Shown here one piece after another: positions 33,264 through 37,058 of a DNA stretch of 64,000 nt (within the stretch, counting starts at the first letter, position 1; each line of letters begins with the position of its first letter). A model generated the notes under the pieces. It saw nothing but the letters and a program-made list of their open reading frames with translations, had not been told where the DNA came from and ran no database searches. This DNA comes from Pseudomonadota bacterium (GTDB lineage: Bacteria; Myxococcota_A; Polyangia; JAAYKL01): positions 254,343-318,342 of the forward strand of contig JALNZK010000002.1 of the NCBI GenBank assembly GCA_023229365.1, in the 5' to 3' direction. A program made the position numbers and the translations under genes.

Positions 33264-33461
33264 CTAGCCTAATTGAATTCTTATTTGTTGATTGTTGCTG
33301 CAATAACAGCATCGAAAAGAACCATTCACGGTGCCGGAATTGCCTTGTCCGGTATTTGTTCCTGGCTGTTGTTTTCCACAAGCTTCACAGACACGAACAT
33401 AAGTGTAATAATTTCTGTTGCCTTCACTGATGATTCGGGCACCCGTAATTGCGTAAGCCAT
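33264..33461 (-). CDS. Small Cys-rich protein
   Basis: CEACG...CCYCS. Confidence 0.3.
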   Translation of the reverse strand: MAYAITGARIISEGNRNYYTYVRVCEACGKQQPGTNTGQGNSGTVNGSFRCCYCSNNQQIRIQLG

Positions 33462-33470
33462 GATCGCACC

Positions 33471-33791
33471 CTAGTTTTTAGAGGGCATCCAGTCCTTGAT
33501 TCTATTCACAGGAATAGAAGGATTGGGTTGTTCTTTTTTCTTTCCAGAGGAAGGATCAGGATCAGGGATAGGTTTCTTGTCATCATCTCCCCGGTCATCA
33601 TTTTTACCAAAAATCGCCGCCAACACCAGAAATGAAATTATCATGCCAACCGGCATTCCAACCAACAACCACACAAAACATCCCGTTAAACTATATCCTA
33701 TAATCCAAAAAGGTACAGCCGGAATACATGCTAAAGTTGCTGAAAGCATCAACCAAAGTAAAAATCCGCAAAAAAATCCAAACTTTCTCAT
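33471..33791 (-). CDS. Small membrane protein (2 TM) with charged C-terminal tail
   Basis: Hydrophobic FFCGFLLWLMLSATLACIPAVPFWIIGYSL and FVWLLVGMPVGMIISFLVLAAIF. ATGA overlap with the upstream kinase. Confidence 0.45.
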   Translation of the reverse strand: MRKFGFFCGFLLWLMLSATLACIPAVPFWIIGYSLTGCFVWLLVGMPVGMIISFLVLAAIFGKNDDRGDDDKKPIPDPDPSSGKKKEQPNPSIPVNRIKDWMPSKN

Positions 33792-35503
33792 TTCATTTTA
33801 ATAGAGTATAGCTTGTCCTCTTTTGAGAACATTACTCTCGCACCATCATGCCACAAACGCATGGTTCCGTCAATAGCCGGGTCTTCCATAATTTTGATCG
33901 TTCCGGCATCTTTTTTGTTGGAAAAAGCCTCTAGTTTTTCCTCTTCGTTTATCATTGTGCAGATTCCGGCATCTGTCACCGTAAAGTTCAGGTCCGTATA
34001 ATCTACGTCTTCCACCACCCGCATGTCATGACTGGAAAAATCTGGGGCGAATCGCATCACAAAACGATTGTACTTACCCTTCTTTTCTGCAATGAGCATT
34101 AACACATTATTTTCATATTTGCCATCCAACACACGGTAGCCATCCAATTCAGGCAAATTAACTTGATAGCTTTTGCCACTTGCTGGAAATAAAGACACCA
34201 CATACCTATCCAACACTTGTTGAACCACAACCCCATCATAGACCTTTGTAGCATCAGGCATATCCAACACCCTGCCTACAATCTTAAGGGCAGGAAGGAA
34301 ATGATTTCCAGGCAATGATGTATTTTTTGTAGACAATTCTGCAAAAGTGATTTCTATTACATCATTCCCCACCACAGCATACAAACGGTTTTCACAGCGG
34401 AATATTGAGGATGCGTGTCCTACTTCCGTATCTCGACTTGGGTCTCGCAAATCAACAATATGAAGGGTGTTTTTCTCCAAATAAAGCCCAACAGGCCAAT
34501 CCATTTTTGGTGTAAAGCCCACACACAATTTTTTGTCATAAGGCTTAAATTCTTTATTGAGATAAAAGCCTTTTTCGGTCACTGTCACTCGAACAGGTCC
34601 AGCAGTATAGCAACCAGAAATATAATCGCTGTAGGTTTCCAGCATTTTGATTTCGAAAAGATTGCTGCCAGCAATTTGTTTTACTTGTACTACAACTGCA
34701 ACAGTTTCGTAATCATCAGGTGGCGGAAATCTTTCGCCTTTTTCTAATGTGGCATAGAGCCATCGTTTGAGCCCTACAGGAATAGAATCCAATGGTTCGC
34801 ATACCCCCGGCAATGTGGCCTTAGGATGAAATGCCGAAACATTATCCTTCATCCTTGCCGTCATTCTTTCTGCTACTGGAAGATGCACAAAATCAGGATG
34901 ACTTCCCTTGTAGGGATGAATGCCTATCTTTAAATTAAATGCTTGAATAGCAAATGAAAACCAATCAGAACCAGCATTAAATCCGTGCGTATGCCAATCC
35001 CTGATGTTTGGCATAATGACAGTAGCGGGGAAGGATGGAGTCTGATAGCTGTTGGTATCAATGGCAAATACTTCTAGAAGCTTGTTGACCAGGAAGTTTA
35101 ACTCATTGAGATCAACAATAACTATATTCTTGCTATGAACATGTTTAATAATTTCCTGCAAACGCTGAAGCAAGAGGGTAGTATGATCTTGAGTTATTTT
35201 ATTGGCCATCTTGTAAGTTTTGGTAAAAAACTTACACAGAGCTTCAGCATTAGCAACCCACCGACTGGTGTAGCCAATAAGTCTGTTTTTGGCATCGAGA
35301 ATGAGATGTTGTGGTCGAATAATGTTGGGCAGTTGAAGGACCGACAACTCTTTGATTTTTGCCTCAGGGATGCAATTGGCTGGGTCTATGAAAATATTGT
35401 AGGCAGTATTGGCTTTTGCGTAGATTTGCTTTTCTCCACCGGCAGCAACGAATTGCCGTTGGACAAGCTCTTCTGCACCAACTCCTTTGACAAAAATTTT
35501 CAT
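33788..35503 (-). CDS. Eukaryote-like (Hanks-type) Ser/Thr protein kinase domain plus large C-terminal beta-rich domain
   Basis: Gly-loop-like GVGAEELV. Catalytic-loop-like HSKNIVIVDLNELNFLV (compare HRDLKPENILV). DFG-like FAIDTNS. SDWFSFAIQAFNLKIGIHPYKG resembles the [20 protein letters not shown] subdomain IX. Confidence 0.6.
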   Translation of the reverse strand: MKIFVKGVGAEELVQRQFVAAGGEKQIYAKANTAYNIFIDPANCIPEAKIKELSVLQLPNIIRPQHLILDAKNRLIGYTSRWVANAEALCKFFTKTYKMANKITQDHTTLLLQRLQEIIKHVHSKNIVIVDLNELNFLVNKLLEVFAIDTNSYQTPSFPATVIMPNIRDWHTHGFNAGSDWFSFAIQAFNLKIGIHPYKGSHPDFVHLPVAERMTARMKDNVSAFHPKATLPGVCEPLDSIPVGLKRWLYATLEKGERFPPPDDYETVAVVVQVKQIAGSNLFEIKMLETYSDYISGCYTAGPVRVTVTEKGFYLNKEFKPYDKKLCVGFTPKMDWPVGLYLEKNTLHIVDLRDPSRDTEVGHASSIFRCENRLYAVVGNDVIEITFAELSTKNTSLPGNHFLPALKIVGRVLDMPDATKVYDGVVVQQVLDRYVVSLFPASGKSYQVNLPELDGYRVLDGKYENNVLMLIAEKKGKYNRFVMRFAPDFSSHDMRVVEDVDYTDLNFTVTDAGICTMINEEEKLEAFSNKKDAGTIKIMEDPAIDGTMRLWHDGARVMFSKEDKLYSIKMK

Positions 35504-35522
35504 TATACACTCAAATCCTTGT

Positions 35523-36050
35523 TCATTCCCTGTTCTCGTTTTCGTTGTGAACGAAATCTTGTGCTAAATATTGTTTGTTAAAGCTTTGAATTTCTTCACA
35601 TTTTCCCGTAACTAACAAGCCGTAAACAACCCAAGCATTACGTGGAAAGGTTTGCTTTTCTATCCAAAGAGTGCCAAAAAGAGCCCCCGCAGGCGTGGTT
35701 GGTTTGTTCAATCGATAATATTGAAAGCAATCTAATTTGAGCAAAAGATGTTGAGTTAAAGCCCGAGCCGTAAAATGCAAGGCTTGTCCACAATTGGCAC
35801 AACGATATGCTGCATCCGGCACTATTCGTTGTCTCTCTGCTTTGTGCTTTTTTTCCTCTGTTTTTGTTTCCATCAACATTCCGCCACATTTCAGACAACG
35901 AGGCTTGGCAGCCCTACGCAACTCTCTGGCTGTCACATATCGAAGTGTATCACAAGAATCACAGCGAAAGCTTCTTGTAAAATCCGAATGAATGGGCGTC
36001 TTGTGTGTGCGGTCTCCACCGTAATCATGAATGCATGGGGCTTTAGCCAT
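35523..36050 (-). CDS. Zn-ribbon protein (hypothetical)
   Basis: CDSCD...CLKCGG...CANCG. Confidence 0.35.
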   Translation of the reverse strand: MAKAPCIHDYGGDRTHKTPIHSDFTRSFRCDSCDTLRYVTARELRRAAKPRCLKCGGMLMETKTEEKKHKAERQRIVPDAAYRCANCGQALHFTARALTQHLLLKLDCFQYYRLNKPTTPAGALFGTLWIEKQTFPRNAWVVYGLLVTGKCEEIQSFNKQYLAQDFVHNENENRE

Positions 36051-36855
36051 TTGTCACTACTCCAATCGAAAAATCATCAAATGGTTTCCATCCCAGTTTA
36101 TCAAACTTCCTAAATGCCATTTGACAACGACGTTCTACAAATCCTTCATTGAAATTTTTAAACGCTATCAATTCCCTAATAACCTCAATGAAGTCAACCT
36201 TTACAGATTGTTTATGTGTGTCTGATTGATCTGTGCGAAAGAAAGCCGATACCCCATCCGACATAATTGCCACTGATTGAACCTCATCAGTGTTAAATCT
36301 GTGAAGTTCTACACTGGCATTTGATAAATTTACTTGACACTCCGTTTCTGCTTTGGTCACAAGAGTGGGCGTAACAATGTATTCATGTCTGTTGTATTTC
36401 GTGCCCACATGAGTTTCATAATTTTTAAGCGACTCTTCATTCAAATGATATCTCAGAAAAAATGGGGCACAATTCTCAAATTCCAGAGAGCAAACATAAA
36501 AATAATTCGGATATTGAGCAACAATCACACCATCGCCCTTCATTGCCACCACAAATTCTTTTCCTATTTGTTGTGCAATTGTGAGAGTGGCAAACAAGCA
36601 ATCTTCATGCAGCCCCATTGCTTGGGCATAATTGGCAGCTTGTCTCAAAACACAATTGTAAAATGCTTCGCTGCCAAGCTCATAATCTGCCGCAAGTGTT
36701 TGAATTGCCGATCTTGTTAGTAGTCTCGCTCCAAAATCGCTGTCCAATGCCGAGGAACACCCATCTGACACAATGGCGTAATTTGCCCCATGTGTGGCGT
36801 AATCTTGACAAATTCTATGGGCTGATCCCTGTGAGAAAAAGCTGTCAGTGGGCAT
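36043..36855 (-). CDS. PP2C-family Ser/Thr protein phosphatase
   Basis: GSAHRICQDYA...YAIVSDGCSS (compare PP2C G..H...QD...AVaDGmGG). Later IMSDGVSAFF. A start at MPTDSFF abuts the upstream small ORF. Confidence 0.6.
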   Translation of the reverse strand: MPTDSFFSQGSAHRICQDYATHGANYAIVSDGCSSALDSDFGARLLTRSAIQTLAADYELGSEAFYNCVLRQAANYAQAMGLHEDCLFATLTIAQQIGKEFVVAMKGDGVIVAQYPNYFYVCSLEFENCAPFFLRYHLNEESLKNYETHVGTKYNRHEYIVTPTLVTKAETECQVNLSNASVELHRFNTDEVQSVAIMSDGVSAFFRTDQSDTHKQSVKVDFIEVIRELIAFKNFNEGFVERRCQMAFRKFDKLGWKPFDDFSIGVVTNG

Positions 36856-36857
36856 CG

Positions 36858-37058
36858 TTATTCCTTTTTCGTGAAAATGCAATCGTCTTGATTGCATTGA
36901 ATCGAATAATGCTCTCTTGCCTTCGGTATCGCAAAAGATTCTTTTGGCTTCCTTGGCTCACCAACAAGCAATTCAGTTATCCCGCCAATAGTGCAAACTC
37001 GTACATTTTTACCGGGAAATTTTTGTTTTGCATTTAGTAAAATTTGCTGTTTAGTCAT
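36858..37058 (-). CDS. Small hypothetical protein
   Basis: ORF between the macro and PP2C genes. Confidence 0.3.
   Translation of the reverse strand: MTKQQILLNAKQKFPGKNVRVCTIGGITELLVGEPRKPKESFAIPKAREHYSIQCNQDDCIFTKKE

Follow-up and report, generated by a model that had tools for sequence, protein, structure and literature searches.

This report concerns a run of minus-strand genes in a 64,000-nucleotide stretch of contig JALNZK010000002.1 (assembly GCA_023229365.1, positions 254,343 to 318,342; hereafter the window), in which a Hanks-type protein kinase and a PP2C-family phosphatase are encoded upstream of a major vault protein (MVP) homolog. Comparison with 160 other loci that carry this kinase indicates that the real unit is very probably a cassette of four genes that does not include MVP: a nicotinamidase-like hydrolase, a von Willebrand factor A (vWA) protein, the PP2C phosphatase and the kinase, the last fused to a seven-bladed beta-propeller. 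We favor, at a probability of about 0.55, the reading in which the kinase, PP2C and vWA protein constitute a phospho-switch, similar to the TerY-P triad, that would gate salvage of nicotinamide toward nicotinamide adenine dinucleotide (NAD+). A preliminary description of the interval 33264–36897 had tied the kinase and phosphatase to the vault protein; it overlooked the conserved partners of the pair, the vWA and nicotinamidase-like genes 3–5 kb upstream, as well as the NAD+ salvage context.

Results

A four-gene cassette in phages and bacteria

The comparison set consisted of 80 phage loci (mostly on contigs of 50–550 kb) and 80 loci from bacterial genomes, each with a full-length kinase homolog, and the six-frame open reading frames (ORFs) of all 160 loci were searched with the proteins of the window. 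PP2C homologs were found at 79/80 phage and 56/80 bacterial loci, homologs of the 246-residue vWA protein at 75/80 and 57/80, and homologs of the 290-residue hydrolase at 73/80 and 53/80, respectively. The same search placed nicotinate phosphoribosyltransferase (NAPRTase) at 28/80 phage and 10/80 bacterial loci, and it returned MVP, the Zn-ribbon protein, the membrane protein and the small ORFs of the window at none of the 80 phage and none of the 80 bacterial loci. The prevailing order is hydrolase–vWA–PP2C–kinase on one strand, with exceptions that are mostly truncated contigs; where the upstream flank reached 6 kb or more, the complete set was present at 71/73 phage and 32/43 bacterial loci. 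The PP2C gene lies upstream of the kinase at 79/80 phage and 55–56/80 bacterial loci, mostly directly adjacent to it, and the commonest junction between the two is a 4-nucleotide overlap. The cassette is hosted by large T4-like and jumbo phages and by some Acidobacteriota, Armatimonadota, Myxococcota, Desulfobacterales and other bacterial chromosomes. No description of a nicotinamidase–vWA–PP2C–kinase cassette was found in the searched literature, the coverage of which was incomplete; the cassette is apparently undescribed. It resembles the TerY-P triad but has a propeller-kinase, adds a nicotinamidase and lies in islands of NAD salvage genes.

The window copy has been split by inserted NAPRTase, macrodomain and Zn-ribbon genes. 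Genes for homing endonucleases of the GIY-YIG/NUMOD3 type occur within or beside the cassette at several loci (L174, 476–1261; L043, 7368–8102; and 8 more), and in L174, a relative with 69% kinase identity, one such gene sits between NAPRTase and PP2C. Insertion by homing endonucleases may partly explain the splitting of the cassette. At five bacterial loci (L120, L136, L139, L146 and L150), several of which belong to the Gammaproteobacteria or Desulfobacterales, no PP2C, vWA or hydrolase gene was detected within 10 kb; in L139, a response-regulator/HATPase gene and a GuaA-like gene are found near the kinase-propeller gene.

Other candidate members of the cassette did not survive scrutiny. A cluster of 347-residue genes that was frequent near the cassette was discarded as antisense shadow ORFs, produced by crude gene calling in GC-rich bacterial loci. 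MoxR ATPases commonly pair with vWA proteins; an AAA_5 (MoxR-like) ATPase was ruled out as a partner here, being present at 0/160 loci. A 366-residue ORF of the window (43683–44783, minus strand) is the positional counterpart of an AAA_5 ATPase gene in the contig of a 97%-identical relative.

The kinase-propeller protein

The kinase-propeller protein (571 residues; 33788–35503, minus strand) comprises a non-RD Hanks-type kinase domain (residues 1–265; 34709–35503) and, as its second half, a seven-bladed beta-propeller (residues 283–570; 33794–34657) that is fused to the kinase in all 162 of 162 complete homologs. The kinase domain was assigned by alignment to p38, a family profile, structural modeling and conservation. 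That the protein is a Hanks-type kinase with a variant catalytic loop, VDLNELN, had been read from the sequence in the preliminary description, and this is borne out: in the p38 alignment IVDLNELN falls over HRDLKPSN and IDT over DFG, and a profile built from 37 family members matches solved protein kinases (RSK2, 1.2e-5). The AlphaFold (AF2) model of the kinase has a mean predicted local distance difference test score (pLDDT) of 90 and retrieves more than 1000 kinase chains from the Protein Data Bank (PDB) with Foldseek at E ≤ 0.001, with template-modeling scores of ~0.55–0.65 to BRAF, PknB and SYK. Profile searches of the single sequences, which the same description had proposed as a check, gave a split outcome: PP2C scored above threshold, but Pfam Pkinase (PF00069) gave the window kinase 16.6 bits, under the cut-off of 31.7. 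Many homologs of the kinase have a precomputed PF00069 match, and NCBIfam returned for the window copy only sub-threshold matches to LanKC/LanL kinase domains.

The search for homologs yielded 1082 proteins at E ≤ 0.001, with essentially full-length coverage among the 120 matches listed. Residues G22, G23, K49, H123, D131, N136, D149, D169 and W181 are present in 250/250 homologs and N133, E134 and T155 in 249/250, and because the VDLNELN loop is thus conserved across 250 homologs, it is a signature of the family and not a sign of decay. The window kinase retains the catalytic-loop D131 and N136 and the equivalent of the metal-binding DFG aspartate, D149; features of the protein-kinase C-lobe are likewise conserved, namely the helix-F DxW motif, R217 and a PAT(V)IM segment that replaces APE. 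The fold, the catalytic Asp and Asn and the helix-C glutamate E52 are all in place, but not the beta3 lysine: this position is Lys in 227/250 family members and Asn (N36) in the window kinase and its 97% relative. Since Asn replaces this Lys, the window kinase may be weakened or may work differently; K49 of helix C, invariant across the family, might compensate. The N36 variant, encoded within 35396–35503, occurs in the same lineage that gained the MVP and Zn-ribbon genes. Taken together, the models and alignments support a true kinase fold of the eukaryote-like kind, whose variant catalytic loop is shared across the family and for which phosphotransfer to protein Ser/Thr is predicted.

Compared with Hanks-type bacterial kinases such as PknB and PknD, the cassette kinase shares the bilobal fold of the eukaryotic protein kinases, the catalytic Asp and Asn, the DFG-Asp equivalent, the helix-F DxW and the subdomain XI Arg. 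It differs in being non-RD (VVD for HRD), in the family motifs DLNELN for DLKPEN and IDV/IDT for DFG and, in the window copy, in the missing beta3 Lys and the score below the Pfam Pkinase gathering threshold. In addition, it is cytoplasmic, without a transmembrane segment, unlike the bacterial kinases of this type that bear sensor domains. A beta-propeller sensor is also found in PknD. The top structural match of the cassette propeller is an enzyme, with WD40-type scaffolds nearly equal in score.

The PP2C, vWA and nicotinamidase-like partners

The third gene of the cassette encodes a PP2C-family Ser/Thr phosphatase (36043–36897, minus strand), as the preliminary description had said, with a match to Pfam PP2C_2 (PF13672) of 48 bits against a cut-off of 24 (E = 1.4e-12). 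Its metal-binding motifs D45-G46, G121-D122-G123, D214-G215 and D274-D275 are the same in all 33 aligned members and are retained by the window copy, aspartates included. Comparison with the N-termini of the family makes 36855 the probable true start.

The second gene encodes a TerY-like vWA-domain protein of 246 residues (39936–40676, minus strand) that has a metal-ion-dependent adhesion site (MIDAS) and a Ser-rich C-terminal tail. Homologs are present at 127–132 of the 160 kinase loci; Pfam VWA_2 matches 17/32 members of the family and VWA 13/32, the best at 7e-9, and the family profile had no match among PDB sequences. In the MIDAS, all members have D40, S44, T110 and D146, and at least 90% have S42. 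The most conserved stretch of the family is the near-invariant tail itself, FVSKSISSQSQALGTGGPSQ; residues 217–246 read LAKLAxFVSKSISSQSQALGTGGPSQSLTF, and S225, S227 and S232 are kept in 94% or more of 135 sequences. We infer from this pattern that the tail would be the best candidate for a phospho-acceptor or docking peptide. In an Armatimonadales genome (L109, 7870–9951), vWA and PP2C domains are found in a single ORF of 693 residues; this candidate gene fusion would be consistent with joint working of the two proteins, although a sequencing or ORF-calling artefact is possible.

The first gene of the cassette encodes a nicotinamidase-like hydrolase of the isochorismatase fold (290 residues; 40813–41685, minus strand), identified by its family profile and catalytic triad and present in homologous form at 126/160 kinase loci. 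Solved structures that match the profile include the yeast nicotinamidase Pnc1 (2h0r, 1.3e-15) and further PncA proteins. No member departs from the D11/K180/C230 triad or from D64, H66 and H146 of the WPPHC motif, and H73 is kept in at least 90% of them. With its D-K-C triad, metal-binding Asp/His residues and WPPHC motif, the hydrolase resembles PncA/Pnc1; it is unlike them in that it carries an insert of ~70 residues, is always encoded beside a vWA protein and, in the window, is missed by Pfam Isochorismatase at E < 0.1. The insert could alter the specificity of the predicted nicotinamidase. The assignments of the hydrolase and the vWA protein draw on family alignments and profiles instead of Pfam matches of single sequences.

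The NAD+ and ADP-ribose neighborhood

All genes of the 160 loci were clustered and the commonest clusters annotated, and loci were counted when a homolog lay within 10 kb of the kinase. By this census, the neighbors of the kinase include NAPRTase (48 loci), an NrtR-type Nudix regulator (46), an NAD-synthase-like protein (27), NADAR (17), an NMNAT-like nucleotidyltransferase (15) and an NAD-dependent DNA ligase (10). Leaving the ligase aside, one or more genes for NAD salvage or ADP-ribose enzymes fall within this distance at 57/80 phage loci, and the distribution of these genes is skewed towards the cassette. Bacterial cassettes often adjoin the gene for the NAD regulator NrtR. On a Spirochaetota chromosome (L148), the order is NAPRTase–NadE–hydrolase–vWA–PP2C–kinase–NrtR, and on one Acidobacteriota chromosome, genes for PARG, NADAR, ADP-ribosylglycohydrolase and NrtR lie directly upstream of the cassette.

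In the window, a PncB-type nicotinate phosphoribosyltransferase (38095–39267, minus strand) is recognized by Pfam NAPRTase (3.2e-64) and NAPRTase_N (9.1e-39). It often accompanies the cassette and here has been inserted between vWA and PP2C; being of the nicotinate type, it needs a nicotinamidase to use nicotinamide. It is followed by the gene for a 280-residue macrodomain protein (37059–37901, minus strand; phrog_335), whose residues 90–258 match the macrodomain 5e3b at 3e-19 and which is predicted to bind or hydrolyze ADP-ribose, and a NUDIX gene lies beyond MVP. Because the NAPRTase, hydrolase, macrodomain and NUDIX genes all fall between 29.4 and 41.7 kb, this whole region can be regarded as an NAD+/ADP-ribose island. 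Between the NAPRTase and vWA genes there is also a putative 167-residue ORF (39307–39810, minus strand) with an N-terminal hydrophobic segment, Tyr/Gly-rich repeats, the string HSAVQYGY... and a YYYYYY run; it had no family match, and no homolog among the 160 loci.

The vault protein gene

The minus-strand genes of the window run unbroken from ~41.7 kb down to 30.8 kb, and, as previously described, the string that contains the kinase runs into the gene for the MVP homolog on the same strand (30774–33227; MVP_shoulder 3.9e-24, Vault_3 1e-9), which is 51–57% identical to mostly myxobacterial MVPs. On direct reading of the sequence, the MVP start codon, ATG, is preceded by a spacer of 36 nucleotides that holds a GGAG Shine-Dalgarno motif. 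A strong terminator-like hairpin (30723–30758, minus strand; 16-bp stem with 10 GC pairs, followed by a T-run) stands directly after the MVP stop codon, and no comparable hairpin was found on the minus strand between 41685 and 30774. Upstream of the nicotinamidase-like gene is a promoter-like site, TTTACA-16-TATAAT (41730–41757, minus strand), with 11/12 matches, in a region that has no more sites of this kind than shuffled sequence does. From these signals it is possible that kinase, PP2C and MVP are co-transcribed; if so, this says nothing on whether MVP is a substrate of the kinase.

Only the window and the relative that is 97% identical to it have kinase and MVP side by side, and MVP was within ±10 kb of the kinase at 0/160 loci. 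In a relative with 64% kinase identity (L173), the kinase is followed by a small ORF and NUDIX, with a gp13-like gene farther on; the arrangement in L001 (~50% identity) is similar, with NUDIX in the place of MVP; and in L174, the kinase is followed by a transmembrane protein and then by an ORF that is not MVP. Because relatives at 50–69% kinase identity have no MVP at that position, MVP is a recent insertion; it and the Zn-ribbon gene are both inserted genes that only the window and its 97% relative have. Conversely, seven MVP contexts outside this lineage are without the cassette, four of them phage-like (L165–167, counted as one context, L168, L169 and L172) and three bacterial (L170, L171 and P0178). 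Read in this comparative light, a functional tie of the kinase and PP2C to the vault protein is not supported.

Several of the phage-like contexts have neighbors of another kind. In L165–167 (~6900–18200), MVP is accompanied by genes for SIR2, a canonical isochorismatase, PRPP-synthetase-like, NAMPT-like and macro-like proteins and NAD synthase, and a homolog of the window macrodomain protein is also near this MVP gene. L168 (6310–11466) has a WGR-PARP gene 1.4 kb upstream of MVP, and L169 (7115–11652) has NADAR immediately upstream of it; at the three bacterial MVP contexts, no NAD or ADP-ribose genes were found beside MVP. In the human vault, ADP-ribose is bound in the MVP shoulder, and the particle contains the NADase TEP1 as well as PARP4 (bioRxiv 10.64898/2026.05.01.722283). 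The phage genes resemble the eukaryotic vault system of MVP, PARP4 and TEP1 in that the window gene is a full-length MVP homolog and in that phage MVP genes adjoin genes for NAD/ADP-ribose enzymes; they are unlike it in that the link of kinase and PP2C to MVP is unsupported. The adjacency of MVP and cassette is probably explained by this common NAD/ADP-ribose theme and not by phosphorylation of MVP.

Other genes of the interval

The four genes that the preliminary description grouped into one leftward unit are indeed packed in that direction, but 33264–36897 holds five ORFs, the fifth being a putative Cys-rich ORF of 65 residues (33264–33461, minus strand; CxxC...CCxC). The latter had no family match in Pfam, PHROGs, NCBIfam or PADLOC, and no homolog among the 160 kinase loci. 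The two junctions that had been pointed out are both present on direct reading: an ATGA overlap joins the kinase stop to the start of the membrane protein, and an 8-nucleotide overlap, ATGGCTAA, joins the PP2C stop to the start of the Zn-ribbon gene.

The Zn-ribbon protein (175 residues; 35523–36050, minus strand) has two CxxC pairs and weak profile matches (Zn_ribbon_8 and MJ0042_CXXC). Its gene has no homolog among the 160 kinase loci, and only the 97%-identical contig has an ORF, of 172 residues, in its place; the 170-residue ORF upstream of PP2C in L001 was ruled out as the same gene, as it is not homologous. The Zn-ribbon gene is a lineage-specific insertion between PP2C and kinase. The small membrane protein (106 residues; 33471–33791, minus strand), with two to three hydrophobic segments that are predicted to span the membrane, is coupled to the kinase by the ATGA overlap. 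The gene can be taken as real because an ORF of 48% identity (3e-27) follows the kinase in the relative L174 at the same position and with the same 4-nucleotide overlap. A small membrane protein after the kinase was ruled out as a fifth conserved member of the cassette, since 15/60 phage loci have one against a background of ~16.5%, and the gene of the window is conserved in close relatives only.

Just downstream of the MVP terminator, a Lar-like restriction-alleviation protein is encoded (30226–30438, minus strand; Lar_restr_allev 1.5e-10). On the basis of its genes for tail sheath, sheath stabilizer, head–tail adaptor, ribonucleotide reductase and an SbcC-like protein, the window is judged to derive from a T4-like myovirus. 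A DNA similarity search of positions 30500–38000 against the INPHARED phage collection gave no match, and searches of the window proteins with PHROGs, NCBIfam and PADLOC found little.

Discussion

What the analysis shows is how the cassette proteins fold, that their catalytic residues are intact, that the order of the genes is conserved and that they lie in an NAD+ context. The closest architectural parallel is the TerY-P triad, which consists of a TerY-like vWA protein, a PP2C phosphatase and a Ser/Thr kinase (Anantharaman, Iyer & Aravind 2012, as summarized in PMC10542128) and for which, according to the same source, stand-alone defence activity was reported by Gao et al. 2020. The cassette has the same three types of protein in the same order, vWA–PP2C–kinase, at the large majority of the 160 loci; its MIDAS, PP2C metal sites and kinase catalytic Asp and Asn are intact; and it is mobile between genomes and accompanied by variable small accessory genes. 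It departs from TerY-P in that its kinase is fused to a seven-bladed beta-propeller and not to a Zn-ribbon, as in the classical version, or an OB fold, as in the defence version (a separate Zn-ribbon gene beside the kinase is found in this lineage only). Furthermore, it has a nicotinamidase-like gene as a fourth core member, it is abundant in phages, and it lies in the context of NAD+ salvage, not among tellurite-resistance genes, CoCoNuT or restriction systems. Because PADLOC gave no TerY-P match and the kinase is fused to a propeller, the resemblance of the triads is architectural only.

If the phospho-switch operates as we suggest, the propeller would recruit a ligand or a protein, and the kinase would phosphorylate a protein target, most plausibly the tail of the vWA protein. 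The PP2C phosphatase would undo this modification, and the Mg-dependent MIDAS of the vWA protein would read the phosphorylation state and thereby gate the activity or the assembly of the nicotinamidase and NAPRTase. The step so controlled would be the conversion of nicotinamide to nicotinate and on to nicotinate mononucleotide (NaMN), that is, the Preiss-Handler route. For a phage, the use of such a switch could be to rebuild NAD+ from the nicotinamide that is freed when the NADase defences of the host fire.

Reconstitution of NAD+ by phages is a known form of counter-defence, with three described pathways, NARP1, NARP2 and NARP3 (PMC13464706), and the cassette invites comparison with these. 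Like them, it belongs to phage-borne sets of NAD+ salvage genes of the sort thought to offset host NAD+ depletion, and the window and related islands carry genes for NAPRTase, NAD synthase, NMNAT-like, Nudix and macro/NADAR proteins. In contrast to the Adps/Namat, Nampt/NMNAT and PnuC/NadR combinations of NARP1–3, the route of the cassette would be that of Preiss-Handler (a nicotinamidase and a PncB-type NAPRTase, with or without NadE), and the cassette adds a dedicated phospho-signaling triad that is found in no described pathway.

Several observations weigh against this reading. Five bacterial loci have the kinase alone despite full flanks, and in the window itself the vWA and PP2C genes are separated by 3 kb of other genes. 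The window copies of the hydrolase and the vWA protein each fall below Pfam thresholds when searched singly, the hydrolase having no Pfam match at E < 0.1, and the window kinase, without its canonical beta3 Lys, could be weakened or inactive. The counts of NAD genes near the kinase stand without a background rate from random phage loci, and the PADLOC components of TerY-P were matched neither by the window proteins nor by 32 vWA and 37 kinase members of the families. Finally, the phospho-switch is a model built by comparison, and we infer what the substrate is, which way regulation runs and that the cassette has a part in counter-defence.

It is informative to set the phospho-switch against other ways in which these genes might be explained, beginning with the proposal that was made when the interval was first described. 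If the kinase and PP2C were co-transcribed with MVP, and phosphorylation of MVP controlled the assembly of the vault shell or its interaction with the host, one would expect genes packed tightly on one strand, a ribosome-binding site before the MVP start (GGAG) and no strong terminator until after MVP, and all of these are present; in addition, the lineage that carries MVP is also the one with the unusual N36 kinase, and MVP of eukaryotes is a phosphoprotein. The comparative record makes this very improbable nonetheless, given that none of the 160 kinase loci has MVP within 10 kb, that the 64% and ~50% relatives have NUDIX in its place and the 69% relative an ORF that is not MVP, that the seven other MVP contexts are without the cassette, and that the kinase/PP2C pair has other conserved partners. 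We hold in similarly low regard the idea that the kinase is an enzyme of host takeover, like gp0.7 of T7, that phosphorylates host proteins early in infection while PP2C limits the damage. The phage setting, the eukaryote-like kinase and a gene string perhaps under a sigma70-like promoter would suit it, but the same cassette is found in bacterial chromosomes of megabase size, inside NAD operons, and its strict linkage to a vWA protein and a hydrolase would not be expected of a takeover kinase.

Two further explanations are somewhat less remote, although we consider both unlikely. The cassette might be an anti-phage defence module of the TerY-P type, or a means of superinfection exclusion, resident in bacteria and borrowed by phages, with the NAD genes being incidental in a conflict island. 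The three-component architecture is that of a system with reported stand-alone defence activity (summarized in PMC10542128), the family kinases weakly resemble the defence kinases mad6, PD-T4-6 and MkoA (best 1.5e-8, with generic kinase models of PADLOC), and the PP2C protein weakly matches the PADLOC PP2C model. Yet the components of TerY-P itself went unmatched, no toxic effector can be recognized, the fourth of the conserved genes encodes a metabolic enzyme, and the neighbors are biosynthetic NAD genes and NrtR instead of restriction or abortive-infection genes; moreover, the cassette is present in at least 80 large phage contigs, beside structural and replication genes. A slightly less probable alternative is that the “kinase” is a small-molecule kinase or nucleotidyl-transferase whose substrate, an NAD precursor or a derivative of ADP-ribose, is bound by the propeller, and that PP2C dephosphorylates the same metabolite. 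The atypical VDLNELN loop, the absence of the HRD Arg, the replacement of Lys by Asn, the fact that 9% of the family can do without the beta3 Lys and the purely metabolic context are all compatible with this, as is the enzyme that heads the structural matches of the propeller, though WD40-type scaffolds score nearly as high. Against it stand the conserved C-lobe features of protein kinases (helix-F DxW, R217 and PAT(V)IM for APE), top structural matches that are protein kinases, PP2C and vWA partners of the kind that are hallmarks of a protein phospho-switch, and the conserved Ser-rich tail of the vWA protein, which suits a protein substrate.

The phospho-switch can be extended to a more speculative proposal, which we think has a small chance of being correct: that the cassette represents a fourth, signal-gated kind of phage NAD+ reconstitution, of the Preiss-Handler type. 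The kinase-propeller protein would sense what an attack by host NADases produces (nicotinamide, ADP-ribose or a modified protein) and, by phosphorylating the vWA tail, would activate a complex of nicotinamidase and NAPRTase; in this lineage the MVP shell, recruited to the island, would serve as a compartment that binds ADP-ribose or NAD. If this were true, phage MVP, and perhaps the ancestral vault, would belong to the biology of NAD+ conflict. With the idea of vault control dropped, the sharper lead is that phage MVP genes are found repeatedly beside PARP, SIR2, NADAR, macrodomain and NAD-salvage genes.

Depletion of NAD+ is a major anti-phage strategy of bacteria, and the known phage pathways for its rebuilding, NARP1–3, are plain sets of enzymes. 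The cassette described here, with more than 1000 homologs of its kinase and a near-fixed gene order in large phages and several bacterial phyla, gives a testable function to a TerY-P-like triad, and if the phospho-switch proves true, Ser/Thr phospho-signaling would for the first time be seen wired into NAD+ salvage.

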